Shown here piece by piece: positions 8,647 through 46,893 of a stretch of 64,000 nt of DNA. A program made the translations under genes and the position numbers. Positions within the stretch are counted from its first letter, which is position 1. Each line of letters opens with the position of its first letter. Location of the stretch: NCBI GenBank assembly GCA_035513775.1, contig DATKBR010000099.1:1879-65878 (forward strand), read 5' to 3'. This DNA comes from Candidatus Limnocylindria bacterium. GTDB lineage: Bacteria > Chloroflexota > Limnocylindria > Limnocylindrales > CSP1-4. The notes under the pieces are model-generated. The model searched no databases. It was not told the DNA's origin and worked only from the letters and a program-made list of their open reading frames with translations.

Positions 8647-9891
8647 TCAGTCCGGCGCGAGGCCGACCCCGCGTCCCGGGTGGGGGAGCGGTGCCTGCCA
8701 CGGGATGCCGGCCCGGATCGTGTTCCGGATCCGGATCCTTGCCGATGCGTGCCGGTCCGTCCGCACGCCGGACTGCTGCGCTCCCGAGTCCCTGAACGTG
8801 AAGTCGCCCTCCTCGACGTCGAACACCGTCAGGTCGGCGGTCCGGCCGAGCCCGATCGCGCCGATGGGCGAGGAGCGGCCGATCGCGGCTGCCGGCCGGC
8901 TCGTGACCGATTCGATCACCCGCGAGAGCGGCATGCCGAGCGCGAGGAACTTCGACATCGTCGTGGGCAGGTCGTAGACCGGCCCCGCCGCGCTCAGTGA
9001 GTGGATGTCAGTGCTGATCGTGTCCGGCCAGAAGCCCTCGGCGATCGCGATATCAGCGACGCGATACGAGAAGCTCCCCGAACCGTGCCCGACGTCGAAC
9101 AGGACGCCGCGGGCACGTGCCTCGTGGACCCCGCGCCCGAGCCGGCCGTCCTCGACGAGGGTATTGTCGGATCCGGTGAAGCAGTGGGTGACGATGTCGC
9201 CCGGTCGCATCAGCTCGAGCAGCTCGCCGATGGGGCGCGGGCAGTACCCGATGTGCATGATCACCGGGATGCCAGCTCCCTCGCCGATCGCGATTGCCCG
9301 CCGGAGGGGCTCGAGATCGTGGTCCCGGATGACCTGCGGCGCCGTCATCCGCACCTTGACCCCGATGACGATGTCCGGGTTCTCGCGCGCCGCCCGGATC
9401 CCGGCCGGGACGTCGAGCATGTCAAGATCCGTGGCCTCGCCGGCCGGCCAGGGGGCAAGCCCCACGTTCGACACGTGGAGGAAGGCGAGCACCCGGGTCC
9501 GGTTGGCCTCGACCGCCAGGCGGCGGAACGCCTCGATCGTGTGGGCGCCGGCGTCGCCAGCGCTGACGCAGGTCGTCACCCCGGTTGTCGAGCTGATCTC
9601 GTCGGCCGGGACCGTCAGGCCGCACACGCCGACGAAGACATGCGTGTGCAGGTCGATGAACCCCGGGGCCACGATGCGATCGGTGGCGTCGATCACCAGC
9701 GTCCCCAGGTCGAGCGGCATCTGCATCCGTCGCTCGGCGATCCGGTCCGAGAGATCCGGCCCGATGGCCGCGATCCGGCCGTACCGGACGCCGACGTCGA
9801 GCCGGGCATCCAGCCCGCTGCCCGCGTCGAGCACCCGTCCACCGCGGATTACCAGGTCGAGGGCCTGGTCGTCGTCGATGCGCAGTGTCAT
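8647..9891 (-). CDS. amidohydrolase-superfamily metallohydrolase (dihydroorotase/deacylase-like)
   Basis: 414 aa. The N-terminal beta-sandwich (LVIRGGRVLDAG...RIAAIGPDL) is followed by the metal-binding motif PGFIDLHTHVF, with later H and D ligands (VIMHIGY, LFDVGHG, STDIHS). Confidence 0.8.
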   Translation of the reverse strand: MTLRIDDDQALDLVIRGGRVLDAGSGLDARLDVGVRYGRIAAIGPDLSDRIAERRMQMPLDLGTLVIDATDRIVAPGFIDLHTHVFVGVCGLTVPADEISSTTGVTTCVSAGDAGAHTIEAFRRLAVEANRTRVLAFLHVSNVGLAPWPAGEATDLDMLDVPAGIRAARENPDIVIGVKVRMTAPQVIRDHDLEPLRRAIAIGEGAGIPVIMHIGYCPRPIGELLELMRPGDIVTHCFTGSDNTLVEDGRLGRGVHEARARGVLFDVGHGSGSFSYRVADIAIAEGFWPDTISTDIHSLSAAGPVYDLPTTMSKFLALGMPLSRVIESVTSRPAAAIGRSSPIGAIGLGRTADLTVFDVEEGDFTFRDSGAQQSGVRTDRHASARIRIRNTIRAGIPWQAPLPHPGRGVGLAPD

Positions 9892-9931
9892 CGCGAGCCT
9901 CCTGTTCGCCGGCCGTTCGCCGCGCCATGGG

Positions 9932-11158
9932 TCATGGGTGCAGCGCCTGCCGGATCCTGTCGAGCGCGTCGAGCCGCATCAGGCCGTAGTGGTAGAAGTC
10001 GACGCGGCTGACGGCGTGGCGCTCCGCGAGCTCTATCTTGACCCGCAGGTTATCGACGCTCGTGGAGTCCGGGGCTGTCGGCCGGAGCGCGACCACGAGG
10101 CGCGGCCCGGGACCCAGCACCTCGCGGTAGGCGGCCATGTCTCCCGCGATCCACGCCGGGTCAGCCGCGTAGCCCAGGATCTCGATGTCGTCGGATGCGC
10201 CCGCCAGGCCGGCGAGGTCCAGCCCGAGCTGCCACGCGATCGTCGGGCTGGGGGCCCCGACGGGCCGGCCCGTGGCGTATCCCTTGTACGCCCCTGACGG
10301 GTCGAGGAACGTGAGCCTGACGCCCGCGGCGGAGAGGACAACGCGGAGCTCCGCCGCCAGGCTGGTCACGACCCGCTCGCGCATCCGGAGGTAGCCGCCG
10401 AGGTCGCCGCCGGCCATGGCCGCGACCTCGTCCCGGGTCAGTTCGCCCGGCGGGTCGTCTACATCCGCCTGAAACGCCTGCTCGATCTGCCCCGCCGCCC
10501 AGCGCCGGATCGCCTCCCCGTCCAGCCCGTCGCGGCCGGCCTCGACCAGGCACGACGCGCAGAAGCAGAGCCCCATCAGCAGCCGTGTGCGCGGTCCCAA
10601 CGGCAGGAAGTAGCGCTCGTGGTGGACCCCGTGCTCGAGCGGGAAGAACTGGACGGCCTCCGAGAGCACCGTCCGGACCCCGCGTCCCGCGACGTCCCGG
10701 GCCAGCGCACGAGCGTAGGCGCGGCCCCCCGGGTTCGACGCGCAGAGGTCGGTCTGGATCGGGTCACCGAACGCGTTCCGCGGGGCCTGCTCGAGGTGCT
10801 CGCCGAGCCGGTCGTGGTGCAGGAACACCGTCCAGGCATGGACGTCGATGCCTCGCCGGTCGGCCGCGCCGACGAGGTCCGCGAGCGGATCGCCGGCGTC
10901 CGCGAGCCGGCTAGGGCGGGCCTTGACGGTCGAATCGGCCCAGGCCGCCGGGTTGGGGCGGAAGAATGTCGAGCCCGGCTCCAGGTAGCGGACGTGGCCC
11001 GACCGCCCATGCGGGAAGACGTCGCGGCCCTCGTGGTAGGTCACGGCCATGAGCACGCCGTTGGCTCCGGCCCGATCGACGACATTCGAGACGACTTCGT
11101 CGGCCCCCTCGTCGATGACGTCGTAGGCGAACGTGAACAGCGCCGCATCCATGCTCAT
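9932..11158 (-). CDS. uncharacterised conserved protein, paralogue A (CFCxxC motif, TIM-barrel-like guess)
   Basis: The real start is taken at the ATG in the ATGA overlap with the upstream PLP gene stop (11155-11158). The 593-aa ORF's N-terminal 185 aa is Arg/Gly/Pro shadow. It shares blocks with 45694-46893: FTFAxDxxDEGAD, AWTVxLH, GxHHER, CFCxxC and the C-terminal FYxYGxMRLxALDxIRxAL. Confidence 0.7.
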   Translation of the reverse strand: MSMDAALFTFAYDVIDEGADEVVSNVVDRAGANGVLMAVTYHEGRDVFPHGRSGHVRYLEPGSTFFRPNPAAWADSTVKARPSRLADAGDPLADLVGAADRRGIDVHAWTVFLHHDRLGEHLEQAPRNAFGDPIQTDLCASNPGGRAYARALARDVAGRGVRTVLSEAVQFFPLEHGVHHERYFLPLGPRTRLLMGLCFCASCLVEAGRDGLDGEAIRRWAAGQIEQAFQADVDDPPGELTRDEVAAMAGGDLGGYLRMRERVVTSLAAELRVVLSAAGVRLTFLDPSGAYKGYATGRPVGAPSPTIAWQLGLDLAGLAGASDDIEILGYAADPAWIAGDMAAYREVLGPGPRLVVALRPTAPDSTSVDNLRVKIELAERHAVSRVDFYHYGLMRLDALDRIRQALHP

Positions 11159-12237
11159 GTCGCAGGATGTCCCTTCGATGCCGAGGCCATGTCGAGGATC
11201 GCATCCCGGTAGGCGAACACCGCGGGCAGGCCGCCGGTGTGGAGGAATACGACCGTGTCCGTGCTCGTGAGTTGTCCTTGCTGGACGGCGGCGATCAGGG
11301 CCGCCATCGCCTTGCCCGTGTAGACAGGGTCGAGCAGCAGCCCTTCCCTGCGAGCGACGATGCGCATCGCGTCGAGCCCCGCGGCAGACGGCCGGGCGTA
11401 GCCTGGCCCGATGAACCGGTCGTCCGTGTCGATCTCTGTCTCGGAGACCGACAGGCGGAGGCCCAGGACGCCGGCGGCGAGGTTGGCTGATTCGGCGGTT
11501 CGGGCGGCCATGCTCGGGCCGGCCCAGGTAATAGGCGCGATCCCCTTGACGGCCACGTCCCACCCGACCGCCTTCGCCCCCAGGACCAGTCCGCTCTGGG
11601 TTGGGCCCGCCGCCGCTGCCCAGATGTGGGTTGGCGTGACCCCGGCCGCCTCGCACTGGGCCATCAGCTCGGGCACCGCGGCGACGTAGCCGAGGGCCGC
11701 GCTCGGCGCCCACGGGTCGATCTTGAACGCCCGCCTCCCGGCCGCTCGCAGCTCGTCCACGATCTCGTCGAGCCGCTCGGCCACGACGAAGGTGATGTCC
11801 GCCTCATCGACGAAGCGGACGTCGGCTCCCAACCAGAGGTCCAGCAGGACGTTGCCCTGGATCTCGGGCATCTCCGTGTTGCGCAGGACGAGGACGATCG
11901 GGATGCCGAGCTTGGCCGCTGCCGCCGCGGCCTGTCGGGACCAGTTTGACTGGATGTTGGCGCCGGTCACGAGCACCTCCGGCTGGCGGATCAGCAGGTC
12001 GCCGAGGACGTATTCCAGGGTGCGCGTCTTGTTGCCGCCGAACGCCAGACCGGTGAGGTCGTCCCGCTTGACGAGGATGCGCGGCCCGCCGAGCGTCTCC
12101 GACAGCCTCGGGAGCTCCTCGAGCGGCGTCGGGAAGTGGCCCAGCCTGACCCGGGGCTGGTTGTCGATCCTCGCGAGCAGCTCGGCGGCAGTGACCCGTG
12201 ACGGCAGGTCCGCCGAGCCTGCAGACGCAGAGGTCAC
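11155..12237 (-). CDS. PLP-dependent ACC deaminase / D-cysteine desulfhydrase family enzyme
   Basis: 360 aa. The PLP-lysine motif AFGGNKTRTLEYVL is typical of the tryptophan-synthase-beta-fold ACCD/DcyD family. Confidence 0.85.
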   Translation of the reverse strand: MTSASAGSADLPSRVTAAELLARIDNQPRVRLGHFPTPLEELPRLSETLGGPRILVKRDDLTGLAFGGNKTRTLEYVLGDLLIRQPEVLVTGANIQSNWSRQAAAAAAKLGIPIVLVLRNTEMPEIQGNVLLDLWLGADVRFVDEADITFVVAERLDEIVDELRAAGRRAFKIDPWAPSAALGYVAAVPELMAQCEAAGVTPTHIWAAAAGPTQSGLVLGAKAVGWDVAVKGIAPITWAGPSMAARTAESANLAAGVLGLRLSVSETEIDTDDRFIGPGYARPSAAGLDAMRIVARREGLLLDPVYTGKAMAALIAAVQQGQLTSTDTVVFLHTGGLPAVFAYRDAILDMASASKGHPAT

Positions 12238-13052
12238 GCCGGGCGCTCGCCTGTGACGGGGCTGCGGAGCGCCCCGATCCCATCGATCGCCGCCACCATC
12301 GTGTCCCCGGCCGCCAGGAAGACAGGTGGCTTCCGGAACACGCCGACACCCGGTGGGGTACCGGTGAGGATGACGTCACCCGGCTCGAGGGTGAAGTGGT
12401 GCGCGCAGAAGGTCATCAGGGAGGGCACGTCGAACAGCAGCTGGTCCGTGTTCGAGCGTTGCATGACGACGCCGTTCACGTGCATCGAGAGCGCGAGGTG
12501 GACGGGATCCGGGAGACCCTCGGGCGTAACCAGCCACGGCCCCATGGGACAGAAGGTGTCGATGGACTTCGCCCGGACAAACTGGACATCACGCGCCTGC
12601 AGGTCCCGGGCGGAGACGTCGTTGGCGATCGTGTACCCCGCGACGGTCGGCCGTCCCGCGCGGTCCCGGGCCCCGACCACGACGGCGAGCTCAACCTCCC
12701 AGTCGACGTTGGTGACGCCGGTCGGCCACGAGACCGGGGTGTCGGGGCCGACGATCGAGCTCGGGAACTTGGCGAAGACGAGCGGCTCGACCGGTGGCTG
12801 GATCCCCTGCTCGAGACAGTGGTCCCGGTAGTTCATCCCGATCGCAATCACCTTGGCGGGTCGCGGCACCGGAGCCATGAGGCGGACTTCCCCGTAGCGG
12901 ACCGAGGGTGCGTTACCAGATGGGACAACCCAGTCGGCCCGCGGGATGGCGAGCAGCGCCTCCATCGGTACGCCCAGATCCACGACGCGGTCCTCGACGA
13001 CCAGGGCGGCCGAGTCGCGGCCCCCGCCGATGTCGATCGACGCAACTCGCAT
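12234..13052 (-). CDS. fumarylacetoacetate hydrolase (FAH) family protein
   Basis: 272 aa. FAH-domain blocks are present: VIAIGMNYRDHCLEQG...PLVFAKFPSSIVGP and LEPGDVILTGTPPGVG. An ATGA overlap joins it to the downstream gene. Confidence 0.85.
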   Translation of the reverse strand: MRVASIDIGGGRDSAALVVEDRVVDLGVPMEALLAIPRADWVVPSGNAPSVRYGEVRLMAPVPRPAKVIAIGMNYRDHCLEQGIQPPVEPLVFAKFPSSIVGPDTPVSWPTGVTNVDWEVELAVVVGARDRAGRPTVAGYTIANDVSARDLQARDVQFVRAKSIDTFCPMGPWLVTPEGLPDPVHLALSMHVNGVVMQRSNTDQLLFDVPSLMTFCAHHFTLEPGDVILTGTPPGVGVFRKPPVFLAAGDTMVAAIDGIGALRSPVTGERPA

Positions 13053-13058
13053 GGGCGC

Positions 13059-13532
13059 CTACTCCCTCCACTCCAGGATGGCGTCGACCTCTACGGACAT
13101 CCCGAACGGCAGGTCAGGGACCCCTACCGACGTCCGGCTGGCGATGGTGGCCGGGCCGTACAGGTCGCGCAGCAGATCCGAGAACCCGTTGAGGACGCGC
13201 GGCTGCTCCGTAAACCCCTCGACAGCGTTCACGTAGCCCGTGACCCGGAGCCACTGGACGACGTCGTCGAGCGAGCCGAGCTCACGTTCGATGGTGCCGA
13301 GCACGTTGAGGGCGGTCAGTTGCGCTGCGGCGATGCCGTCGTCGACCGTGAGGTCCCGCCCGATCTTGCCGAGATACAGCCACTCGTCACCGAACGTCGG
13401 GCCGTGACCGGCGACGTAGACGGTCCGGCCGCTCTTGGCCAAGCGACGGTACGTCAGCGTGACTCCGGGCGGGATCACCTGGCCCGGCGGGATCACCAGG
13501 CCCCGCGAAGCGAGCTTCTCGCGGATTGTCAT
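13059..13532 (-). CDS. RidA/YjgF/TdcF-family protein
   Basis: The start is chosen at the ATG at 13532 (MTIREKLASRGLV), preceded by GGAG. The C-terminal block ASRTSVGVPDLPFGMSVEVDAILE is typical of the family. The longer ORF start at 13580 would bury an operator-like palindrome. Confidence 0.75.
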   Translation of the reverse strand: MTIREKLASRGLVIPPGQVIPPGVTLTYRRLAKSGRTVYVAGHGPTFGDEWLYLGKIGRDLTVDDGIAAAQLTALNVLGTIERELGSLDDVVQWLRVTGYVNAVEGFTEQPRVLNGFSDLLRDLYGPATIASRTSVGVPDLPFGMSVEVDAILEWRE

Positions 13533-13542: not shown

Positions 13543-13555
13543 TTGGTCTGACCAA
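13543..13555. promoter_or_regulatory. putative GntR/FadR-type operator TTGGTCTGACCAA
   Basis: Perfect 5-3-5 inverted repeat (TTGGT-CTG-ACCAA) lying 11 nt upstream of the RidA start codon. It is a member of the recurring GGY-N3-ACC motif. Confidence 0.55.
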
Positions 13556-13653: not shown

Positions 13654-13666
13654 TTGGTCGAACCAA
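13654..13666. promoter_or_regulatory. putative GntR/FadR-type operator TTGGTCGAACCAA
   Basis: 5-3-5 inverted repeat lying 48 nt upstream of the SDR start. It abuts a TATTCT -10-like hexamer at 13649-13654. Confidence 0.55.
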
Positions 13667-13713: not shown

Positions 13714-14502
13714 ATGGACCCGAACCACTCCTTTGATGGGCGTGTCGCCCTCGTAGTCGGCGCGGCCGGAGGGATCGGCCGGGCGACGGCACGGGCGTTC
13801 GCTGGCGCGGGAGCTGTCGTGGCCATGGCAGATCTCGACGCCGACTCCACCCGTGCCGCCGCGGAGGGGTTCCCGCCCGGCACGCGTTCATTCCACGCGG
13901 TGGACCTGGCGCAGCCGGGCGGTCCGGCAGCCCTGGTCCGCGAAGTCGTGGAGGCCCACGGCAAGCTGCACGTGGTCGTCGGGGCGGCCGGCTTTCTTCG
14001 CGTGGCCTCGCTGCGCGACCTCGAGGTCGAGGACTGGGACCGCACCCTGGCGGTGAACCTCAGGGGCAACGTCCTCCTCGCCCAGGCGGCGGCGACGGTG
14101 TTCCTCGAGCAGGGCATCCAGGGACGGATCGTCGTGATCGCGTCCATCGTCTCGCGCCTGGCGCGCCTCAACAACGTCGCGTACGCCGCGTCCAAGGCGG
14201 GCCTGGTGCAGGCGGTCAGGTGCATGGCACTGGAGCTGGCGCCGCACGGGATCACGGTCAACGCGGTGTCGCCCGGTTCCACTGCTACGCCGATGCTCCT
14301 CGAGGTGCAGATGCGCGGTTCGAACGAGGCCCTGCGACAGGCCATCGAGGGCGACCTCGCGACGTGGCGGCTGGGCGTGCCCCTGGGCCACCTTGCCGAT
14401 CCGGCGGACCAAGCCGCAGCCATCCTGTTCCTGGCCTCGGACGCCGCCCGACACGTCACCGGGCAGGAACTCTTCGTGGACGGCGGCCAGACCGTCGTCT
14501 GA
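13714..14502 (+). CDS. SDR-family oxidoreductase
   Basis: The ATG at 13714 is preceded by AGGAGC. The product begins MDPNHSFDGRVALVVGAAGGIGRATA (TGxxxGIG motif). The catalytic YAASK and the C-terminal VTGQELFVDGG are present. Confidence 0.85.
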   Translation: MDPNHSFDGRVALVVGAAGGIGRATARAFAGAGAVVAMADLDADSTRAAAEGFPPGTRSFHAVDLAQPGGPAALVREVVEAHGKLHVVVGAAGFLRVASLRDLEVEDWDRTLAVNLRGNVLLAQAAATVFLEQGIQGRIVVIASIVSRLARLNNVAYAASKAGLVQAVRCMALELAPHGITVNAVSPGSTATPMLLEVQMRGSNEALRQAIEGDLATWRLGVPLGHLADPADQAAAILFLASDAARHVTGQELFVDGGQTVV

Positions 14503-14536: not shown

Positions 14537-15865
14537 CTAGAAGAAGGTGGGGACCAGGCCTCGGACCCGTCGGGCGTCATCGACCGCGAGCATGACCCGC
14601 CAGCGCTCGAACGCCTCACAGGGGTGCGAGATTCCACATCCGATGAGATCGCCGGGCGCCGGATCGATGCGGCCGCCGAGGTCCAGGTAGGCATGTTGGT
14701 CGTCCATCCGTCGGACACGGATGGCGGGCTCGATCGGCTCGACTTCGTGGCCGCGCCGGAGGTGCCACCGGGCCAAGGGCGTGTCGATGCGCGCCGGCGC
14801 GTCGCGGTGGCCGAAACCCACTACCGCGAGCTCACGCTCCGGCCGGGAGATAACGACTCCCCAGAGCTCGAGCGCTGCCTGCAGCCGGCCGTACTGCGGG
14901 AGCCGACCGCTGGTGGCCGACATCGGGGATGACCGCAGGTAGAGGCCGTCGTCGTGCGTCACGTAGCCACCCGGCCGGAGGACCAGTTGGTAGTCGGGCA
15001 AGGCCGACCTGCCAAGCATGGCCACCACGCGGTCGAAGTAGACGCTGCCTCCGGCACTCACCAGCGGCTTCGCGACGGCAAGGTCGGGCAGGATCCGGCG
15101 TGCGACCTCGGCGAGCGAATCAAGGTACGCGTCCGCGGCCAGCTCGCGGGCCTCCGCCGTGTCCCCGGGAGCAATCCCCTCATATCCCTCGATCCCGAGG
15201 AGTTCGACCCGGGGATGCGCCTCGCGAGCGGCGCGGATGACGCGGTCGATCGAGCCCGGGTCGCGAGCCCCGGCGCGGCCGCCCGGGAAGCCATGCTCGA
15301 CGAGCATGCCGACGGGGCGATCGAGCCCAGCCGCCGTTGCGGCATCCGCCCACGCTGCCACATTGACCGGATCATCTACCAGTACGATCAGCGAGAACGT
15401 GGGATCGGCGGACAGCTCGGCGACGAGCCTGCCGATCTCGCCGGGATGGGTGACCTCGTTCGCGATGAGGATCCGGCCGATGCCGAACGCGCGGCAGCTG
15501 AGTGCCTGCCGCGTGGTTGCGACCGTCACGGCCCACGCCCCAGCCCGCAGCTGCTCGGCAATGATGTGCGGGGCCATGGTCGTCTTGCAGTGCGGCGCCA
15601 GCCAGGCCCCCGCATCGTCGCAGAAGGACTGCATGGTCGCGATGTTTGCCAGGAGGGAGTCCCAGCGCACGACCATCTGAGGGAAGGTCACGCGGTCGTC
15701 GAACGCGGAGATCCCGGCTTCGGCGATGCCCGCCGGCGTCGCGGCGACGTCACGCGGCCCGCTGCGGAAGGAGGGATCGAGGGGCCGTGCCGCCCAGCTG
15801 CGCAGCGCTGCGTCGAGCGGCGCGAGTCCCGTCCCGGTGGCCGCTGCGTCGCCCGCGGCCGTCAC
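14537..15865 (-). CDS. DSD1-type PLP enzyme (alanine-racemase-fold N domain plus D-serine-dehydratase-like C domain)
   Basis: 442 aa. The GTG start overlaps the stop of the lipoyl-domain gene (GTGA at 15862-15865). It carries the PLP-lysine block LAPHCKTT and overall resembles the D-Ser dehydratase / D-Thr aldolase / D-3-hydroxyaspartate enzyme family. Confidence 0.75.
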   Translation of the reverse strand: MTAAGDAAATGTGLAPLDAALRSWAARPLDPSFRSGPRDVAATPAGIAEAGISAFDDRVTFPQMVVRWDSLLANIATMQSFCDDAGAWLAPHCKTTMAPHIIAEQLRAGAWAVTVATTRQALSCRAFGIGRILIANEVTHPGEIGRLVAELSADPTFSLIVLVDDPVNVAAWADAATAAGLDRPVGMLVEHGFPGGRAGARDPGSIDRVIRAAREAHPRVELLGIEGYEGIAPGDTAEARELAADAYLDSLAEVARRILPDLAVAKPLVSAGGSVYFDRVVAMLGRSALPDYQLVLRPGGYVTHDDGLYLRSSPMSATSGRLPQYGRLQAALELWGVVISRPERELAVVGFGHRDAPARIDTPLARWHLRRGHEVEPIEPAIRVRRMDDQHAYLDLGGRIDPAPGDLIGCGISHPCEAFERWRVMLAVDDARRVRGLVPTFF

Positions 15866-16107
15866 GCGGGATCGGTGTCGTCGATGTAGCCGAGTACGAT
15901 CTCGACGGGGACGGGATCGTTGCTGGCGGCCACGAGGATCTCGAGCCGTCCGTCCGCAGGAGCCTCGATCTCGGCGTTGGCCTTGTCGGTCTCCACGACG
16001 AGCAAAGGGTCGCCCTTGGCGACGCGCTCTCCGCTATGCCGCAGCCACTCCACGACCGTCGCCGACTCCATCAGGCCCAGTTGCGGGATGACGATCTCGG
16101 TCCTCAT
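15862..16107 (-). CDS. free-standing lipoyl-attachment domain protein (81 aa)
   Basis: MRTEIVIPQLGLMESATVVEWLRHSGERVAKGDPLLVVETDKANAEIEAPADGRLEIL carries the ETDKA lipoyl-lysine motif. The ATG lies in an ATGA overlap with the RidA stop (16104-16107). No E2 catalytic domain follows. Confidence 0.8.
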   Translation of the reverse strand: MRTEIVIPQLGLMESATVVEWLRHSGERVAKGDPLLVVETDKANAEIEAPADGRLEILVAASNDPVPVEIVLGYIDDTDPA

Positions 16108-17281: not shown

Positions 17282-17291
17282 TGTATCGAAG

Positions 17292-17304
17292 GCGGTAGGA
17301 CCAA
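17292..17304. promoter_or_regulatory. putative GntR-type operator GCGGTAGGACCAA
   Basis: GGT-AGG-ACC core lying 11 nt upstream of the RraA-like ATG. It sits inside an 18-bp block identical to 18959-18976. Confidence 0.5.
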
Positions 17305-19051: not shown

Positions 19052-19056
19052 TGCGA

Positions 19057-39119: not shown

Positions 39120-39166
39120 ACGCGGCCCTGCGTAGTGGACTGGACGGGATCAGGATCGGAGCAACA

Positions 39167-40408: not shown

Positions 40409-41476
40409 TCAGGCGTCGAGCGACCTGGCCGCGTCCTGACCGAGACGTGGGCCGGCCGGAGATGCGGGCCGGTCTCGCCGAGCCGGCCCGTCGAGGACGT
40501 TGCCGATCGCCCCGAGGATCGAGGTCGCATCCGGGATGGCCGCGGCCTGCAGGCTGGGAGCGGCCGGGATCGGGATATCGGGCGCGCCGATCCGCTCGAT
40601 CGGTGCGTCAAGGTCCCAGAAGCACTCCCTGGCCGCGCGAGCCGCGATCTCGGCGCCGAATCCGCCCGTCAGGTTGGCCTCGTGGGCGATGACGAGCCGT
40701 CCGGTCCGGTGCACCGATTCGGCGACAGTCGCGAAGTCCAATGGCGACAGCCACCGAAGATCGATGACCTCCACACTGTGACCTTCCGCCGCGGCTGCTT
40801 CGGCCGCCCGGATGGACTCGGTCACCAACCGCGACCAGCTCACGAGCGTCACGTCCGAACCGGGTCGCACGACGCGGGCTCCCCCGATTGGCTCGACGGG
40901 CCCGCCGAGGGTGACAGGCCCTGTGTCCGGGTAGAGCAGGCGACTCTCGATGACGAGTGTCGGATCTTCCGAGGCGATCGCGGATCGGAGGATCTCGTAG
41001 GCATCCCGTGGGCTCGCTGGGATGCCGACCCGCAGCCCCGGGATGTGGCCGTACCAGGCCTCGAGACTCTGCGAGTGCTGGGCGCATGCGCCCGGGGAAT
41101 AGCCCTGTTGCGTCCGGATCGTGATCGGTGCCGACCAGGTTCCGCGCGACACATACCGGGTGTTGGCCACCTGATTGACGATCTGGTCCATGGCCACGGC
41201 CATGAAGTCGCCGTACATGATCTCGATGATCGGGCGCCGACCGCGCATACCCGCTCCCAGCGCAGCGCCGATGATCGCGGCCTCGGAGATCGGCGTGTCG
41301 AAGACTCGCCCTCCGAATGCATCATGCAGACCCTTCGTAGCTCCGAACGGTCCACCCGGCAGCGCGACATCTTCACCGAAGATCAGGGCTTCGGGGTGGG
41401 TTTCGAGGGCCCAACGCAGCGCTGCGTTGACGGCCTGGATGTAGCGCAGCTCCTGTGGACCCGCGATCTCAGGCAT
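40409..41476 (-). CDS. 2-oxoacid/acetoin dehydrogenase E1 beta subunit (second copy)
   Basis: The ATG at 41476 overlaps the E1 alpha 3' end by 8 nt. MPEIAGPQELRYIQAVNAALRWALE...LIFGEDV...VFDTPISEAAIIGAALGAG matches the family. The upstream part of the 427-aa ORF is shadow. Confidence 0.9.
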   Translation of the reverse strand: MPEIAGPQELRYIQAVNAALRWALETHPEALIFGEDVALPGGPFGATKGLHDAFGGRVFDTPISEAAIIGAALGAGMRGRRPIIEIMYGDFMAVAMDQIVNQVANTRYVSRGTWSAPITIRTQQGYSPGACAQHSQSLEAWYGHIPGLRVGIPASPRDAYEILRSAIASEDPTLVIESRLLYPDTGPVTLGGPVEPIGGARVVRPGSDVTLVSWSRLVTESIRAAEAAAAEGHSVEVIDLRWLSPLDFATVAESVHRTGRLVIAHEANLTGGFGAEIAARAARECFWDLDAPIERIGAPDIPIPAAPSLQAAAIPDATSILGAIGNVLDGPARRDRPASPAGPRLGQDAARSLDA

Positions 41477-42455
41477 AGACGTGATCCGCGACGGTTCGGG
41501 CGTCCGGGTACGAGATCGTCCGAGCGCTGGCGAGCGACATATCGACCAGCTCGGCGACCTCCCGATCGATCTCATCGAGCCGATAGGTGGAGTCCTGACC
41601 TCGCGCAACGGCAGCGTGGCGGAGTCTGACGAGCGGCTCACGCTCGCGTGCCGATGCGAGCTCGCCGGCCGGTCGGTAGTGCTGCAGATCACCGCTGTAG
41701 TGGCCCACGAGCCGTTCGGTCAGGGCCTCGATGAGCGTAGGGCCACCGCCCTGTCGGGCACGAACGACGGCGGCTCCGACAGCATCCGTGACCGTATCCG
41801 CGTCGTTGCCGTCGACGGTCAGCCCCGGGATGCCGTAAGCATCGGCGCGTCGCGACAAGGGCTTGATACGGACCATGGCATCGATTGGCGTCATCTCGGA
41901 GTAGACGTTGTTCTCGACGACGATGACCAGCGGCAACGAGTACACAGCTGCGAAGTTCAACGCTTCGTGGACCGCGCCCTGGTTCAGGGCTCCGTCGCCG
42001 ATCGAAACGAGGCTCACCGCTCCGCGCCCGTCGTGCAGTGACGCGAGCGCAGCGCCTGCGGCCATGGGCACGCCTCCGCCGACGATCGAGTTCTCGCCGA
42101 GGAATCCGTGCGCCGCGGACGAGAAGTAGGGTGACCCCGCTCGTCCGCCGCACAGAACGGAGTCGCGGGCGAGCAATTCGGCGAACAGGTCCACCAGCGG
42201 GATCCCGCGGGCGATCGCCCACCCATGGCCGCGGTAGGTCGCTGTGAGCGCATCACGACTCTCGAGCGCTCGGCAGGCTCCAACGGGGATAGCCTCCTGT
42301 CCGTTGCACAGGTGAATGGAGCCCGGGATCTCCCCGGCTGCCTTGAGCTCGGAGCAGCGGTCCTCGAACGCCCGGATCAGCGCGATCGCTCGGTAGTTCT
42401 CCTCAAGCGACACGACGGCACCCGGGTGGCGTCGTCGAATCGCGCCGCGGCTCAC
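41469..42455 (-). CDS. TPP-dependent E1 alpha subunit (second copy)
   Basis: 328 aa with the TPP motif SIGDGALNQGAVHEALNFAAVYSLPLVIVVENNVYS. Confidence 0.9.
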   Translation of the reverse strand: MSRGAIRRRHPGAVVSLEENYRAIALIRAFEDRCSELKAAGEIPGSIHLCNGQEAIPVGACRALESRDALTATYRGHGWAIARGIPLVDLFAELLARDSVLCGGRAGSPYFSSAAHGFLGENSIVGGGVPMAAGAALASLHDGRGAVSLVSIGDGALNQGAVHEALNFAAVYSLPLVIVVENNVYSEMTPIDAMVRIKPLSRRADAYGIPGLTVDGNDADTVTDAVGAAVVRARQGGGPTLIEALTERLVGHYSGDLQHYRPAGELASAREREPLVRLRHAAVARGQDSTYRLDEIDREVAELVDMSLASARTISYPDARTVADHVYA

Positions 42456-42463
42456 GCAGCCGA

Positions 42464-43306
42464 TCAGGCCTCCGGGACATCGTAGACCTGGGCTGTCAGG
42501 CCACCATCGACGACAAGGTTATGGCCGGTGACGTACGACGCATCGTCCGATGCGAGATAGAGGAACGCGCTCGCGACTTCGTCAGCTGACGCCATGCGAT
42601 CCATGGGAACGACGGGAAAGGAATCTCGAAACTTGGCCATCGCCGCGTCGCCGACGATGTCGACCGATTGCTGCGTGTCGACCGGTCCCGGGCTGACGGC
42701 GTTGACTCGGATGTGGTTCGGGGCCAATTCCACCGCCATCGACTTGACGAGCGAAAGGATGCCGGCTTTGGCAACGCAGTAGTGGCTGAAGCTGCGGCTG
42801 GCCCCGAGTCCGCTCACGGACGCGGTGTACAGGATGACGCCGCCACCATGCCGAGCCATGACTCGCGCCGCGCGCTGTCCGATCACGAACGAGGCTGTGA
42901 GATTCACGGCGATCAGGCGTTGCCATGACTCGTCCTTGAGTTCCAGGAACGACTCTTCCGTCCACGCGGCCGCATTGCTGACGACGACATCCAACGGAAG
43001 GTCCCCTCGCGTCGCCGTGTCGATGGCGGCCTGACAGGCGTCGATCGACCCGAGATCCACGCAGATCGCGACCGCATCCACCCCGAGGTCCGTAAGCTCA
43101 GCGACGACGGCGTCCGCACGATCCTGGAGCCGATCGACAACATGAATCGCTGCGGCCCCTTCCTGTGCGAACCGCAGCGCGGTCGCGCGTCCGATCCCGC
43201 TGCCGGCTCCAGTGATGAGGATCCGCTTGCCTGCAAGTCGCCCGGTCGCCAATTGCACGTTCCTTTCCGACTGCGATCCCCCCCGCTTCGTTTGCGGGAG
43301 CCACAC
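42464..43306 (-). CDS. SDR-family oxidoreductase
   Basis: RILITGAGSGIGRATA, the catalytic YCVAKA and VTGHNLVVDGG are present. The ORF-track start at 43306 is GTG and abuts the MBL stop. An alternative GTG at 43258 would give VQLATGRLAGKR. Confidence 0.85.
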   Translation of the reverse strand: MWLPQTKRGGSQSERNVQLATGRLAGKRILITGAGSGIGRATALRFAQEGAAAIHVVDRLQDRADAVVAELTDLGVDAVAICVDLGSIDACQAAIDTATRGDLPLDVVVSNAAAWTEESFLELKDESWQRLIAVNLTASFVIGQRAARVMARHGGGVILYTASVSGLGASRSFSHYCVAKAGILSLVKSMAVELAPNHIRVNAVSPGPVDTQQSVDIVGDAAMAKFRDSFPVVPMDRMASADEVASAFLYLASDDASYVTGHNLVVDGGLTAQVYDVPEA

Positions 43307-44050
43307 CTAGGCCAGCAGATTCCGCGGGGCTCCGATCTGTCGGAACTCATTGTCAGCTCGCTCGACGTGGCGTTTGCCGTTCTGCAGCGAGAACGTCAGA
43401 TGTCCCGGCAAGAGCGCGTCGAATTCGAGTTGCCGAAGTTTCGCCATCGAAGCCGCGTAGTCGGGAATGCTGACGTCGACGACGTTCTGGAGGACGATCT
43501 TGCCGCCCCAGAAGACGGCGTCGCCGGAGAAGAGGTAGCGGCGGTCGCTGCCCTGCAGCAGGTAGCAGAAGTGACCCTTGCAGTGACCGGGCGTGTAGAT
43601 CGCCTCGATCCGGAACCGTCCGACGTCGATTGTCTCCCCGCCGAGGAGCTCTTCGTCGACCTCACACGGCTCCAGGACGTACTCGGGCGGGTAGAAGTTG
43701 AAGCTCTGCGCCCAGGCCAGGCCATTCCAGTAGGAGTCACCCTGGCGGATGGGATCTGCCGCCTCCTGCCCAGTGATCACGCGGCTGCCGTAGGACCGCT
43801 TCCAGCCGGCCAGCCCACCGGCGTGGTCGGCGTGGTAATGAGTGACCAGCACCTTCGTGATCCTTGACGGATCAAGCCCGTCTGCTCGGATGTTCGCCTC
43901 TATCTGAGCCTGAGCAGGACCGAACCCGGCATCAATGAGAACGAGCTCATCACCGCCGTCGATCAGATAGACATGACTGTCCTTGGAATGGGTCATGTTC
44001 AGGCCGTTGTCGCCGCCGGCAACCAGGTACACATCCTGTGTCAGTCTCAA
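43307..44050 (-). CDS. MBL-fold metallo-hydrolase (paralogue 2)
   Basis: A TTG start at 44050 is chosen because GGGAGG lies 6 nt upstream. It gives (M)RLTQDVYLVAGG, colinear with paralogue 1 (VRLTNDVHLVGGG) and of identical 248-aa length. VTHYHADHAGG is present. Confidence 0.72.
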   Translation of the reverse strand: MRLTQDVYLVAGGDNGLNMTHSKDSHVYLIDGGDELVLIDAGFGPAQAQIEANIRADGLDPSRITKVLVTHYHADHAGGLAGWKRSYGSRVITGQEAADPIRQGDSYWNGLAWAQSFNFYPPEYVLEPCEVDEELLGGETIDVGRFRIEAIYTPGHCKGHFCYLLQGSDRRYLFSGDAVFWGGKIVLQNVVDVSIPDYAASMAKLRQLEFDALLPGHLTFSLQNGKRHVERADNEFRQIGAPRNLLA

Positions 44051-44372
44051 GGCAGACCTCCCGCGGGAATTCGTGCTCACAGGGCAGCCATCCGGATGCC
44101 GCCACGCCCCTTGGCCGTTGTGCGCCGGAGTGTACGTGAGCAGCGCGTCCCGGACTTCGCTTCCAGCAGTTGCTGAAGGCATTCGTCGGCCCCGGGACCA
44201 GGTCTCCGTCGTATCCGTACGCGGCGATCTTCAGGACGGTTTGGGCGACGATCGCCGACGTCGATCCGCACGGCAAGCGATGTCGATGCCGGCCTCGGTC
44301 AAATCCGGGACCTTCAGGGCGACGACGGCGAAGGGTGTGGGCGAGGGGCGATGACGTGGCCAATCCCGGGCG

Positions 44373-45497
44373 TCACTGCACGCGTCCTCTGGCGGCAACG
44401 CGCCAGCGGTCGACGACCGCTCCGGACTCCGCGACCAGCAGCTCGTCCGTGAGGTTGACGACCGTGCAGGCATGGCTCGGGATGATGGCCACGCGGTCGC
44501 CGACCCGCAGCGGCGAGCCCGGTGGCACGGCGATGATCCCGTGCTCCTCGTTGACGCGCACCACCTGGTAGTCGGGCCGGTCGGCGAGCTGCCCTACGAT
44601 CGGAGGGGCGCCACGCTTGTTCACGCGGTCCGATGAGAGGGTCTTGGAACCCGCGTCGACGACGACCCAGCTGTGGTGCACGCTGACGACCGTCGCCACG
44701 ACCCAGATCGCGACGTCGTCCAGCGTGGCCGCTCCCTGGGCGACGGTGGTCACGTCGTGGAACACGTAGGTGCCGGGGCGCAGCTCGGTCACGCCTGGAG
44801 CCCGCATCCCGAACCGGGCGGTCGCCGTCGAACCGACCGAGACCCGGTTGACCTCCAACCCGCGCGCCCTGATGGCCTCCGCGACCCACACGACCTGGGC
44901 ACATGCCGCGAGCGTCTCGCGCTCCAGCTCGGCGTGGGTGGCCGAACGGGGCAGCGCATGGCCTTCGTGGGTCAGGACGCCGTCAAAGCCGATACCGGGC
45001 AGGGCTGCGATGTGCAGCGCAAGGTCGACCGCGCCCTCGTCCGGTGGCACGCCGATGCGGTCCAGCCCAGTGTTCAGCTCCAGGAGCACGGGGATCACCA
45101 GGCCGCGGGCGTGCGCGGCCCGGCCGATCGGCGCAGCGACTTCGAGCGAGTCCAGGCTGACCGAGAGCTGGACTCGCTCCGCGAGGTCCAGCAACCGCGC
45201 AACCTTGGCGGCACCAACGACCGGGTAGCCGATGAACAGGTCCGTGACGCCGCTGGCCAGGAGCACCTCCGCCTCGCCGAGCTTGGCCACCTGCAGCCCG
45301 GACGCCCCGGCGTCCAGCTGCATCCGGGCAATCTCGAGCGTCTTGTGTGCCTTGGTGTGAGGTCGGAGGCCCCTGCCGCTGTCCCTGGCCATCGCCGCCA
45401 TCCGCTCGACGTTGCCGCGGACGACCGGTGCATCGACCACGACAGCCGGCGTGTCGGGGACGGCGTCGAGGACCGCCAGCCTTTGGTCGAGGGTCAT
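44373..45497 (-). CDS. DSD1-type PLP enzyme (D-serine dehydratase / D-threonine aldolase-like), second copy
   Basis: The ATG at 45497 is preceded by GGGAGGG. PAVVVDAPVVRGNVERMAA...LRPHTKAHKTLEIARMQL carries the PLP lysine. The C-terminal block VNEEHGII...GDRVAIIPSHACTVVN is present. Confidence 0.8.
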   Translation of the reverse strand: MTLDQRLAVLDAVPDTPAVVVDAPVVRGNVERMAAMARDSGRGLRPHTKAHKTLEIARMQLDAGASGLQVAKLGEAEVLLASGVTDLFIGYPVVGAAKVARLLDLAERVQLSVSLDSLEVAAPIGRAAHARGLVIPVLLELNTGLDRIGVPPDEGAVDLALHIAALPGIGFDGVLTHEGHALPRSATHAELERETLAACAQVVWVAEAIRARGLEVNRVSVGSTATARFGMRAPGVTELRPGTYVFHDVTTVAQGAATLDDVAIWVVATVVSVHHSWVVVDAGSKTLSSDRVNKRGAPPIVGQLADRPDYQVVRVNEEHGIIAVPPGSPLRVGDRVAIIPSHACTVVNLTDELLVAESGAVVDRWRVAARGRVQ

Positions 45498-45693
45498 GTC
45501 GCCAGTCCCTCCCGCCGATCCGCGTTCGCCACTTGCCGGAGTCCGTGACCTGCACGGAGGATATCCTGCTGCTGCCGCCCGGCCGTGGCGGGGATCGGCC
45601 TCGTGGCCGCGAGCCTGCGCGACAAGCCGACTGCCTGTACGACAGTATGACGATGCGCCCGCCGACGAGCGCGCATCATGCTGAGTGCTCGCA

Positions 45694-46893
45694 ATGGCCT
45701 CGACCTCGACCACGCTCCTCACCTTCGCGATCGATCTCCTCGATGAGGGGGCCGATGTCGTTGCGCGGCGCGCGGTGGACGCCGGCTTGACCTGTCTATC
45801 GACGACGGCCGCCTACCATGCCGGCCGCGACCTTCTCCCGCACAACCCGGTGCGCTCCATCGCGTACCAGCCGAGCGGCGCCGTCTACTTTCAGCCGGAC
45901 TGGGGCGTATATGGTGACGACATACTGCGTCCGGTAGTGGCCCCGGTCGTCGGTTCGAGGGACGTGATGGTCGAGCTTGCGGAGGCCGCGACCCGGCACG
46001 GCCTGGCGACGTCGGCCTGGACGGTTATCCTGCACAACTCCCGCCTGGCGGAGGCGAGGCAGGACCTCGCCCCGCAGACGGCCCTCGGCGACCGGCTCCT
46101 GCACATGCTGTGTCCGGCGAACCCGGCGGTCCAGGCGTACGCCACCGCCTTGGCCTGCGACATCGCGGGTCGCGGGCCGTCGATCATCCACCTGGAGTCG
46201 ATGACCTACCTGCCGTTCGACCACGGCGGTCATCACGAGCGGGTGATGATCCCGCTCCGCGCTCAGGAGCGACGAATGCTCGGCGTCTGCTTTTGTGGCG
46301 CCTGCATCGAGGCGGCGAAGGCAGGCGGCGTGGATGGAGACGCCGTTCGCCGCGCAGTCGGGCGGCATCTCCGGTGCGTGCTCGACGGTCCCGGGAGCGC
46401 GATCGGCGACGCGGATCCATCCCTCGAGCGGATGCTCGATGACTACCTGGCGACCCGCCGAGCGATGATCTCGGCCTTCGTCGAGCACGTCTCCGGAAGC
46501 GTGCGCTCAAGGGCGCCGAACGTGGAGATCGCCGTCATCGACGTGTCGGGCTACTTCGCCTCGTTGGACCCGCGCACCCGATCAGTCGACGTCGCGGCCA
46601 GCGATGGCTTCGACCTGGGCAGGATGGCAGGGCCGGTCGACCGCGTCTCGGTCACGGCGTACTTCCAGGACGTCGAGCGATACCGGCGCGAAGTGTCCGA
46701 CTACGTAGAGACCCTGGGTGACCCGTCGCTGCTCGAGGTGATCCTCCGCCCTGGCCCGCCCGACAGCCACAGCCCAGAAGACCTACGACTCCGCGTGCAG
46801 ATTGCTCGCGACGCGGGGGTCCGTCATCTCGCGTTCTACAACTACGGGATGATGCGGCTGGAGGCGCTCGACTGGATCCGCGCAGCCCTCTAG
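45694..46893 (+). CDS. uncharacterised conserved protein, paralogue B (CFCxxC motif)
   Basis: ATG at 45694, with an alternative GTG at 45685. MASTSTTLLTFAIDLLDEGAD...AWTVILHN...GGHHERV...CFCGACIEAAK...FYNYGMMRLEALDWIRAAL is colinear with 9932-11158. Confidence 0.7.
   Translation: MASTSTTLLTFAIDLLDEGADVVARRAVDAGLTCLSTTAAYHAGRDLLPHNPVRSIAYQPSGAVYFQPDWGVYGDDILRPVVAPVVGSRDVMVELAEAATRHGLATSAWTVILHNSRLAEARQDLAPQTALGDRLLHMLCPANPAVQAYATALACDIAGRGPSIIHLESMTYLPFDHGGHHERVMIPLRAQERRMLGVCFCGACIEAAKAGGVDGDAVRRAVGRHLRCVLDGPGSAIGDADPSLERMLDDYLATRRAMISAFVEHVSGSVRSRAPNVEIAVIDVSGYFASLDPRTRSVDVAASDGFDLGRMAGPVDRVSVTAYFQDVERYRREVSDYVETLGDPSLLEVILRPGPPDSHSPEDLRLRVQIARDAGVRHLAFYNYGMMRLEALDWIRAAL

Follow-up and report, generated by a model that had tools for sequence, protein, structure and literature searches.

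Gene content of the locus

The window studied here is a stretch of 64,000 nucleotides from Candidatus Limnocylindria bacterium, a soil member of the Chloroflexota (assembly GCA_035513775.1, contig DATKBR010000099.1, positions 1,879 to 65,878). It holds a real and regulated catabolic gene cluster of 38-41 kb, which a first reading of the bare sequence (the original prediction) had placed at 8647-46893 and assigned to D-amino acids, non-canonical amino acids or peptides. We find the gene cluster as described, and we propose that it serves the degradation of N-acylated amino-sugar acids. The window has about 70% G+C, and gene calling therefore relied on open frames and on the GC of third codon positions; families were then assigned by Pfam and NCBIfam scans of the window proteins. 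About 37 genes lie within 8647-46893, and every function of the predicted inventory was recovered.

The left end is read on the minus strand. It begins with Amh414, an amidohydrolase/deacetylase of 414 residues (8647-9891; Pfam Amidohydro_1/3; 376 bits for NCBIfam NF006689, cutoff 371), and with CFC_a (9932-11158), a protein without Pfam assignment carrying a C...CFCxxC motif. Then come PALP, a fold-type II pyridoxal phosphate (PLP) enzyme of the D-cysteine desulfhydrase/ACC deaminase family (11155-12237; Pfam PALP), an FAH-family hydrolase (12234-13052; FAA_hydrolase) and YjgF, a protein of the RidA superfamily (13059-13532; YjgF_endoribonc). SDR_a (13715-14502; adh_short) is divergent, on the plus strand. 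The minus strand resumes with DSD_a (14537-15865), a fold-type III PLP enzyme (Ala_racemase_N plus D-ser_dehydrat) of the 3gwq "D-serine deaminase" type, a free lipoyl carrier protein of 94 residues with an ETDKA motif (15862-16146; Biotin_lipoyl), RidA (16104-16541; Ribonuc_L-PSP), an RraA-like protein of the class II pyruvate aldolase/oxaloacetate decarboxylase family (16583-17260; RraA-like) and a cytochrome P450 (17521-18807; p450).

On the plus strand follow SDR_b (19094-19873; adh_short), E1 alpha_a (19870-20868; E1_dh) and E1 beta_a (20865-21923; Transket_pyr/Transketolase_C), both PDH-E1-like by NCBIfam, the only GntR/FCD transcription factor, predicted to regulate the cluster (21920-22672; GntR and FCD), an MtnA/eIF-2B-like protein (22693-23913) and Amh3, an N-deacylase of D-aminoacylase fold with 528 residues (23945-25531; Amidohydro_3). 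The same strand carries a complete Opp/Dpp-type ATP-binding cassette (ABC) importer: SBP_a, a family-5 solute-binding lipoprotein with a Tat/lipobox signal at its N-terminus (25722-27443; SBP_bac_5), SBP_b, a signal-less protein of the same fold (27465-29009), then two permeases and two ATPases (29016-32948; BPD_transp_1, and ABC_tran with oligo_HPY). After a small alpha/beta hydrolase (32945-33610; weak match to Hydrolase_4) lies a tandem block of diverged duplicates (33594-40384), identified by Pfam and NCBIfam: MBL_a (33594-34340), PNPOx_a (34370-34951), the class I/II aminotransferase AT_a (34948-36135) and the M20 deacylase M20_a (36128-37357), then M20_b (37417-38604), PNPOx_b (38601-39119) and AT_b (39116-40384). 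The right end has, on the minus strand, E1 beta_b (40409-41476), E1 alpha_b (41469-42455), SDR_c (42464-43306) and MBL_b (43307-44182), all recognised by Pfam, and DSD_b (44373-45497), a fold-type III PLP enzyme (again Ala_racemase_N plus D-ser_dehydrat) of the D-threonine aldolase/D-3-hydroxyaspartate dehydratase type; it closes with CFC_b on the plus strand (45694-46893). The two CFC proteins, the small hydrolase and the MtnA-like protein come in addition to the enzymes first listed.

The paralogue pairs, described from the outset as diverged, are 29-50% identical; they are therefore old duplicates or separate acquisitions and not an artefact of assembly. None of the 30 cluster proteins scanned meets a function-specific equivalog cutoff of NCBIfam: the only cutoffs passed are those of the generically named NF006689 (Amh414), of a subfamily model for E1 beta and of a subfamily model for one SDR.

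The right boundary at 46893 is sound, since an Ada/MGMT gene, an ECF sigma factor and housekeeping genes come next. The left one is probably set too short. A LutA-like CCG protein (7867-8610), LutB (6359-7870) and LutC (5727-6362), three lactate-utilisation proteins recognised by their Pfam domains (LUD_dom, Fer4, LutB_C, CCG), are encoded on the same strand over 5727-8610, 37 bp downstream of the gene at 8647, so that they are likely the distal genes of the left operon. As for the word "island", it holds in the sense of a gene cluster and fails in the sense of a mobile element: a search of the window for tRNA genes, Rfam elements, integrases, insertion sequences and bounding repeats found none, the GC dip across the cluster is only slight, and we dropped the idea of a mobile island.

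A family of glycoside-hydrolase-like TIM barrels

CFC_a and CFC_b, which stand at the two ends of the cluster, share a G[LV]CFCxxC motif and are 35% identical to each other. CFC_b is 100% identical to the NCBI hypothetical protein VMQ65_09870 of Candidatus Limnocylindria. Neither copy matches any Pfam family, GHL10 included, in a Pfam scan, and a sequence search of the PDB with CFC gave nothing useful. At E<=1e-30 the family counts 768 clusters at 50% identity among 1.84 billion representatives.

Only the fold search was informative. The AlphaFold (AF2) model of CFC_b is a (beta/alpha)8 barrel with a mean confidence (pLDDT) of 93.3, and Foldseek places it nearest, among solved structures, to the C-terminal domain of PgaB (glycoside hydrolase family GH153), to Cwp19 (GHL10) and to GH42 beta-galactosidases, with TM scores of 0.55-0.71 and sequence identities of 10-16%; the fold of CFC_a is deduced from this model of its paralogue. 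In the family alignment the conserved cysteines C140, C199, C201 and C204 form a C...CxCxxC pattern like the Cys4 zinc site of GH42, and E168, within a conserved LES motif, is invariant. Members of clan GH-A are expected to combine a (beta/alpha)8 barrel with two catalytic Glu residues, the acid/base after beta4 and the nucleophile after beta7. CFC resembles GH42, GHL10 and GH153 by its predicted fold, its invariant Glu and its cysteines, but it differs from them by the low identity, the lack of Pfam match for the window copies, a His-rich HGGHHER motif, a cytoplasmic location and, at the place of the nucleophile, the absence of a conserved Glu: R352, P353 and D357 are invariant there instead. 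On the strength of the model, we consider the CFC proteins as a putative family of cytoplasmic, glycoside-hydrolase-like TIM barrels. In metagenomes, single proteins join CFC to a GH20 hexosaminidase (locus L090) or to amidohydrolases (P0135 and P0139).

Conservation of the gene set

Related loci were gathered with an alignment of 13 closer CFC sequences, and the window proteins were compared by tblastn with 80 genome loci and with metagenomic loci. All open reading frames within 7 kb of CFC were also clustered, without bias, at 87 loci. The original prediction had suggested following the rarest members of the cluster through other genomes; for CFC, core partners do recur across loci. SDRs are found at 55 of the 87 loci, the D-aminoacylase-fold Amh3 at 37, DSD1-type enzymes at 29, ABC ATPases at 25, CUT1 permeases at 22, RidA at 21, Gfo/Idh/MocA proteins at 18, xylose-isomerase-like TIM barrels at 13 + 10, KDPG aldolase at 12, SBP_bac_1 and GntR/UTRA at 11 each, and PfkB at 7.

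Single-copy versions of the cluster exist in a Dormibacteraceae metagenome-assembled genome (L001) and on a metagenome contig (L084). Both show a same-strand string of two family-5 solute-binding proteins, two permeases, two ATPases, alpha/beta hydrolase, MBL, PNPOx, aminotransferase, M20, CFC and Amidohydro_3; beside it are E1 alpha/beta, a free lipoyl protein, FAH, SDR, a split transketolase, RraA-like and RidA genes, with a DSD1-type gene in L001 only. With these orthologues the window "a" copies share 45-70% identity (55-67% for the duplicate block, 56-63% for the importer permeases and ATPases). As they are far closer to them than to their paralogues in the window, the duplications are old. 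The small alpha/beta hydrolase keeps its position in L001, L084 and L088, and free lipoyl proteins of 78-80 residues come after E1 alpha/beta in L001, L084 and L059.

The left-hand module, which comprises YjgF, CFC_a, Amh414, SDR_a and an enzyme of DSD_b type, is found again in several loci of Actinomycetota and Gaiellales. Next to CFC_a-type genes are found Amh414 (L016, L027, L038, L044, L049), orthologues of YjgF with 60-65% identity (L016, L027, L036, L038, L044) and orthologues of DSD_b with 51-52% identity (L016, L036, L038, L044); those of SDR_a are 52-60% identical (L016, L027, L036, L038, L044). Other members are spread more variously: DSD_a at 38-46% identity in L001, L085, L090 and L059; FAH in L001, L084, L053 and L057; RidA at 67-71% in L001, L084, L053 and L059; RraA-like at 57-65% in L001, L084, L027 and L059; SDR_b with E1 alpha_a and E1 beta_a at 40-51% in L001, L084, L049 and L059. 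P450 homologues of about 30% identity belong to the same regulon in L053, L059 and L062, and orthologues of Amh3 at 48-56% stand beside CFC in 37 loci and in L090.

Some loci join these modules in other ways. L059, from Nanopelagicales, combines Amh3, DSD, P450, RraA, RidA, CFC, E1 alpha/beta, free lipoyl protein, GntR/FCD, SDR and transketolase with an importer that is a CUT1 sugar-type system. L027 joins SBP_b, RraA, AT, M20, PNPOx and MBL to YjgF, CFC and Amh414. In L085 one operon carries DSD, KDPG aldolase, PfkB, RidA, CFC and Amh3; L090 carries an Amh3 that is 48% identical to that of the window, DSD and, over 4019-8414, a PfkB-RidA fusion of 484 residues and the GH20-CFC fusion of 978 residues. 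The close relative L088 (80-89% protein identity) retains the tandem MBL-PNPOx-AT-M20-M20-PNPOx-AT block and the DSD_b/CFC_b pair and lacks the E1_b-SDR_c-MBL_b block (40409-44182 in the window). After its CFC_b come (L088 11203-18555) an HpcH/HpaI aldolase, a GntR/FCD regulator and a corrinoid-dependent methyl-transfer system made of a URO-D-like methyltransferase, a B12-binding protein, a RACo activase and a pterin-binding methyltransferase. This system hints at a methylated substrate; the window, for its part, has a P450, which, by analogy, is possibly a demethylase. LutABC, PALP and the MtnA-like gene occur in this window only and have no counterpart in the related loci.

The locus is thus modular and fluid, built from anciently diverged duplicates as first proposed: single-copy versions exist elsewhere and blocks vary in L088. 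It is also coherent, most of the gene set recurring together in other phyla. The variant extends over Chloroflexota, Dormibacterota, Actinomycetota (in partial versions, freshwater Nanopelagicales included) and Alphaproteobacteria.

A CFC homologue of Martelella lutilitoris (L003, CP066786, 1-20023) lies in a different, alphaproteobacterial context, with a DSD1-type enzyme, a GntR/FCD regulator, an adenine-deaminase-like amidohydrolase, CN_hydrolase, phosphotriesterase-like and creatininase genes and three ABC systems.

A shared operator motif

Promoter regions in three phyla carry the palindrome TTGGT-N3-ACCAA. In the window two perfect copies, TTGGTCTGACCAA (13543-13555) and TTGGTCGAACCAA (13654-13666), occupy the divergent promoter region of YjgF and SDR_a, and related sites are present upstream of the RraA operon, in the divergent P450/SDR_b region and, as TTGGTCGGACCGA with one mismatch (25542-25554), between Amh3 and the importer genes. 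The RraA region bears an exact 18-bp box, GGCGGTAGGACCAATCAA (17291-17308), and an exact 22-bp box, GCAATGGCCGGACCATTGCGAT (17367-17388), whose inverted arms are 7 bp long (GCAATGG/CCATTGC). A second copy of both, equally spaced, lies between P450 and SDR_b (18959-18976 and 19036-19057), the surroundings having diverged; the boxes could be binding sites of one or two regulators.

Outside the window, L059 has 9 TTGGT-N3-ACCAA sites for 0.16 expected, all of them paired in divergent promoter regions; L001 has two in its DSD/RraA promoter region; L053, L056 and L062 contain perfect copies as well, those of L053 and L062 being likewise paired in promoter regions. Operators of FadR/FCD-type GntR regulators have the consensus form t.GT.nnn.AC.a. 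The palindromes of the window fit this form and are predicted to be sites of its GntR/FCD protein, whose winged helix-turn-helix domain is 38-41% identical to that of the cluster regulators of L059 and L084. The features of a regulon of the FadR/FCD subfamily, namely a regulator combining such a domain with FCD and palindromes in the target promoters, are thus found together (window, L001, L053, L056, L059 and L062), and this predicted operator common to several promoters adds to the coherence of the locus.

Deacylases and PLP enzymes

Among solved structures, Amh3 matches best 1m7j (296 bits), 3gip (252 bits) and the OngB enzyme PpOngB (9kb1, 223 bits); a look-up of its exact sequence found no record. 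Its specificity residues were taken as defined for PpOngB, AfDam and BbDam and compared in 34 CFC-linked orthologues. The anchors for acetamido and carboxylate groups (Y192, Y283, D366, R377) and the catalytic Asp are invariant in all of them. At the positions of the hydrophobic residues F191 and M254 of AfDam, the window protein has T and S; among the orthologues, T stands at the first position in 19 of 34 and G, A or S at the second in 28 of 34. Loop 2 has a 62-residue insertion, compared with 21 residues in AfDam. The specificity of PpOngB has been ascribed to Ser292, Gln298 and the small residues Ala193, Ala256 and Gly348 (PMC12017989). The equivalents of positions 193 and 256 are T and S in Amh3, and the region of Gln298 is unalignable because of the insertion. 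Judged by these residues, Amh3 belongs to a distinct clade with a predicted polar or small cavity and is no orthologue of OngB.

Among the PLP enzymes, DSD_a matches the "D-serine deaminase" 3gwq (209 bits). DSD_b matches 4v15 (169 bits) and 3wqc (152 bits), and scores 168 bits against the BhcC model of NCBIfam, cutoff 690. PALP comes nearest to the CuyA and XcbE models and reaches the cutoff of neither (271 bits vs 450).

Downstream enzymes and importer

The nearest solved relative of FAH is the L-2,4-diketo-3-deoxyrhamnonate hydrolase 8gsr (189 bits); FAH itself scores 211 bits against NCBIfam NF053535, cutoff 500. The RraA-like protein is weakly similar to the HMG/CHA aldolase 3noj (59 bits), and the SDRs remain below the cutoff of the Lra1 model (172 vs 400). 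The best model for the lipoyl protein is the N-terminus of AcoC (PRK14875; 67 bits for a cutoff of 307, N-terminal part only). The small alpha/beta hydrolase has no NCBIfam match at 1e-5, which gives no support to the idea of a "split AcoC", in which this hydrolase and the free lipoyl protein would together make up an acetoin E2.

The importer was first called a peptide importer. Its Opp/Dpp family is confirmed by the complete set of genes; its peptide substrate is a family label only, the L059 regulon using a sugar-type importer. The matches of the solute-binding proteins to NikA, AppA, GsiB and AgaA are all weak (45-97 bits) and say nothing of the ligand. Orthologues of SBP_b of 60% identity (L001 317-1798, L084 281-1777, L027 12777-14261) also lack a signal peptide, and in L027 the gene adjoins RraA, AT, M20 and PNPOx, at a distance from all permease genes. 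From these features, SBP_b may be a cytoplasmic component and not a part of the transporter.

A proposed route for N-acyl amino-sugar acids

N-acylated amino-sugar acids are, chemically, D-amino acids. We hold with moderate confidence that the locus is a catabolic supercluster under GntR/FCD control which serves N-acylated 2-amino-2-deoxy-aldonic acids, or glycoconjugates releasing them. It is made of at least three conserved modules, each around the CFC family, and would work along the following route, in which we infer the substrate, the order of the steps and the role of CFC. The compound would be taken up by the ABC importer, and the cytoplasmic CFC barrels would act on its sugar part. Amh3, Amh414 or both would remove the N-acyl group. 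The resulting D-configured 2-amino-3-hydroxy acid would undergo PLP-dependent alpha,beta-elimination by DSD_a or DSD_b, and hydrolysis of the enamine/imine by RidA and YjgF would give a 2-keto-3-deoxy (4-hydroxy-2-oxo) acid. From there, without phosphorylation, an SDR might oxidise C4 and FAH, as a "diketo-hydrolase", might cut the product into pyruvate and lactate or glycerate; and/or the RraA-like class II aldolase might cut the acid into pyruvate and an aldehyde. Lactate would pass to the adjacent LutABC, and E1 alpha/beta with the free lipoyl protein would oxidise a 2-oxo or alpha-hydroxyketone product.

The succession originally proposed (import, N-deacylation, PLP-dependent beta-elimination, quenching by RidA, cleavage of the keto acid) fits the gene set. 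The substrate class is not supported: the glycoside-hydrolase-like fold of CFC, its sugar-type neighbours and the ong enzyme set of L090 (see below) all speak against D-amino acids, non-canonical amino acids or peptides. Lower pathways differ between lineages. KdgK with Eda, the HpcH aldolase of L088, the RraA-like aldolase and SDR with FAH all take 4-hydroxy-2-oxo acids, which is why we take an amino-sugar acid (a 2-amino-3,4-dihydroxy acid) as the probable substrate of the deaminase. That convergent lower pathways are attached to the same core in different lineages is the strongest argument for this and implies an amino-sugar acid. The original prediction thus probably had the right chemistry and the wrong family of substrates.

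Comparison with described pathways

Oxidised amino sugars are products of the attack of lytic polysaccharide monooxygenases on chitin. To our knowledge, the ong pathway, published in 2022, is the only described route for them. In Pseudoalteromonas prydzensis it degrades oxidised chitin and GlcNAc1A by means of OngA (GH20), OngB (D-aminoacylase family), OngC (fold-type III PLP deaminase), OngD (RidA) and KdgK, and it has been reported only in Gammaproteobacteria and one betaproteobacterium (Jiang et al. 2022, PMC9537276). The window shares with it the deacylase of D-aminoacylase fold, the fold-type III PLP enzyme, present here as DSD_a and DSD_b, and RidA, accompanied here by YjgF. The ong enzymes convert an amino-sugar acid step by step into a 2-keto-3-deoxy acid, and the same order is proposed for the window. 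The related loci come closer: L085 and L090 add KdgK, KDPG aldolase and GH20, and L090 matches the full ong enzyme set. On the other hand the window goes beyond ong by the CFC family, the GntR/FCD regulon, the ABC importer, the non-phosphorylative lower pathway, the E1/lipoyl module, the P450 and the duplicated AT, M20, PNPOx and MBL genes. The cluster is most likely an ong-like catabolic system for amino-sugar acids which brings in new components and extends the taxonomic range.

Its lower part recalls the "diketo-hydrolase" route for L-rhamnose and L-fucose, where an SDR 4-dehydrogenase and L-2,4-diketo-3-deoxyrhamnonate hydrolase lead to pyruvate and L-lactate. The nearest solved relative of FAH, the adjacent SDRs and the lactate-utilisation operon downstream are in line with it; by contrast the window does not have the trio of sugar 1-dehydrogenase, lactonase and aldonate dehydratase, since it contains neither a lactonase nor a dehydratase of the enolase or IlvD type, and its 2-keto-3-deoxy acid would arise by deamination and not by dehydration. 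The catabolism of N-acyl-D-amino acids by D-aminoacylase and D-amino-acid dehydratase has the same folds in the same reaction order, but the context in the window is of carbohydrate type and the cavity residues are polar. Acetoin and pyruvate dehydrogenases share the thiamine diphosphate (ThDP)-dependent E1 alpha/beta pairs and the lipoyl domain nearest to the N-terminus of AcoC; in the window this domain is a free protein of 94 residues, and neither an E2 catalytic domain nor an E3 is present.

The beta-hydroxyaspartate cycle was considered and rejected. PALP would have been BhcB, DSD would have been BhcC, RidA would have acted on iminosuccinate, and RraA and FAH would have been oxaloacetate decarboxylases. 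The BhcC model is missed by far (168 and 63 bits for a cutoff of 690), the context is that of carbohydrates, and the Pfam and NCBIfam scans of the window found no ornithine-cyclodeaminase-family reductase for BhcD. We agree with the original prediction that no described pathway maps gene for gene onto the cluster.

Points against the proposed substrate

Several observations weigh against an amino-sugar acid as the substrate. The substrate class is deduced entirely from context. The window lacks the GH20 enzyme OngA, KdgK, the TonB-dependent receptor, the SSS symporter and the MurR/RpiR regulator of the ong system, as well as Eda and a confidently identified pair of sugar 1-dehydrogenase and lactonase. 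Its importer belongs to the peptide/opine/nickel family; and two M20 deacylases, two aminotransferases and an enzyme of the D-cysteine desulfhydrase family suit amino acids or peptides at least equally. Amh3 differs from OngB by its separate clade, its loop insertion, a Thr at the equivalent of Ser292 and a His (shared by 23 of 34 orthologues) in place of the carboxylate-binding Lys254, and its score with PpOngB (223 bits) is below that with the D-aminoacylase of A. faecalis (296 bits). No operator site was found in L084 at one mismatch or less, nor in the DSD_b/CFC_b intergenic region of the right-hand module. The GH20-CFC and amidohydrolase-CFC fusions, like the PfkB-RidA fusion, are all single metagenomic observations, so that they are perhaps miscalled adjacent genes. 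Finally 19 of 53 well-flanked CFC loci have no core partner at all, and CFC is not exclusive to the pathway, since CFC loci of Streptomyces, Kitasatospora and Thermomicrobiales show no cluster context.

Alternative explanations

The amino-acid reading deserves to be set out in full. The Opp/Dpp system would import a D- or beta-hydroxy amino acid in N-acylated or peptide-bound form, and M20, the D-aminoacylase or the second amidohydrolase would release it. The DSD1-type enzymes and PALP would perform beta-elimination or aldol cleavage (for example on D-Ser, D-Thr, D-3-hydroxyaspartate, D-Cys or D-cysteate), RidA would quench the imine, RraA and FAH would decarboxylate those of oxaloacetate type, and E1 would oxidise the keto acid. 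The family-5 solute-binding proteins and the oligo_HPY ATPases agree with it, although the Nanopelagicales regulon works with a sugar-type importer. So do the two ArgE/DapE-type M20 enzymes and the two AspAT-like aminotransferases. Amh3 is nearest to a true D-aminoacylase, 1m7j, but its cavity is polar or small, unlike the hydrophobic one of D-aminoacylase. DSD_b is nearest to D-threonine aldolase and D-threo-3-hydroxyaspartate dehydratase, PALP to the CuyA and D-Cys desulfhydrase models, and the RraA and FAH families include oxaloacetate decarboxylases; yet the NCBIfam cutoffs for BhcC, CuyA and D-Cys desulfhydrase are widely missed. The core is constantly accompanied by a glycoside-hydrolase-like TIM barrel and, elsewhere, by KDG kinase, KDPG aldolase, GH20, Gfo/Idh/MocA and xylose-isomerase-like genes. 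We therefore regard a specialisation in D-amino acids or peptides as unlikely.

The locus could also be a composite of separate operons with different substrates: an ong-like core (CFC, Amh, DSD, RidA, SDR, FAH, RraA), an unrelated module for import, deacylation and transamination (SBP5 ABC importer, alpha/beta hydrolase, MBL, PNPOx, AT, M20) and an E1-lipoyl module of acetoin or pyruvate type. The exchange, in L088, of the E1_b-SDR_c-MBL_b block for an HpcH aldolase and a corrinoid methyltransferase system would then be easily understood, as would the lack of AT, M20, PNPOx, MBL and E1 genes at most CFC loci, that of the shared operator in the right-hand module, and the confinement of LutABC, PALP and the MtnA-like gene to the window. 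But the Dormibacteraceae locus packs importer, alpha/beta hydrolase, MBL, PNPOx, AT, M20, CFC and Amh3 tightly into one same-strand string; L027 unites SBP_b, RraA, AT, M20, PNPOx and MBL with YjgF, CFC and Amh414; and in L059 E1 alpha/beta and the lipoyl gene directly follow CFC, all units sharing the operator. Such an assembly of independent parts, conceivable for the right-hand module, seems to us rather improbable, to about the same degree as the amino-acid reading.

A biosynthetic cluster for a small natural product, in which the P450, E1/lipoyl C2-transfer, the aminotransferases and tailoring hydrolases would find a place, is very improbable: although P450, MBL, PNPOx/F420-type and E1/lipoyl or transketolase modules are found in some such clusters, the Pfam and NCBIfam scans of the window found no core gene for a nonribosomal peptide synthetase, polyketide synthase, ribosomally synthesised peptide (RiPP), terpene or ligase, and the importer dependent on a solute-binding protein, the catabolic FCD-type regulator, RidA, the end steps by FAH, aldolase and LutABC, and the homologues accompanying KdgK and Eda all point to catabolism.

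What an amino-sugar-acid route would mean

If the cluster does degrade amino-sugar acids, a pathway related to ong but differently built would be widespread in abundant and poorly cultured lineages of soil and freshwater (acI Actinobacteria, Gaiellales, Dormibacterota, Limnocylindria), and the flow of carbon and nitrogen out of chitin and other polymers of amino sugars would be assigned differently in those habitats. The CFC family would receive a functional context, the operator and its regulator would form a testable pair, and candidates for new enzymology would include the free lipoyl carrier with E1/transketolase, the signal-less solute-binding protein, and demethylation by P450 or corrinoid.

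One may go further, though only tentatively, and with clearly less confidence than for the substrate class. In Terrabacteria from soil and fresh water (Limnocylindria, Dormibacterota, Gaiellales, Rubrobacterales and the acI Nanopelagicales), the conserved GntR/FCD regulon might encode an undescribed non-phosphorylative route for N-acyl amino-sugar acids, with three signatures: a new zinc-Cys4 glycoside-hydrolase-like family, a cytoplasmic protein of solute-binding fold, and a ThDP-dependent E1-transketolase module that hands an acyl unit from the sugar over to a free lipoyl carrier. Such an acyl transfer, if true, would be a new way to break the carbon chain of a sugar acid.

Minor genes and flanking features

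The MtnA-like protein is recognised only weakly (49 bits for Pfam IF-2B, 85 bits in NCBIfam for a cutoff of 271); it has an apparent twin-arginine-like motif, RRAFIRS, at its N-terminus, and its domain starts only after about 90 residues, the start codon being uncertain. In the left flank (1949-5604) are a GMC oxidoreductase of 676 residues, whose matched domains start only at residue 165, and a long open reading frame of the EamA transporter family. The GMC enzyme could oxidise a sugar at C1.

Farther from the cluster, a 16-nucleotide unit, GAGCGGCATGCGGCAA, is repeated in tandem about 4 times at 450-511, just upstream of an acyl-CoA dehydrogenase gene (604-1839). Short repeats of the CGGCGATCC type occupy 50200-50283, upstream of the gene at 50278, and an imperfect inverted repeat of 57 nucleotides, at 53476-53792, lies between divergent genes for an alpha/beta hydrolase (52483-53604) and a DnaJ-domain protein (53667-54335).

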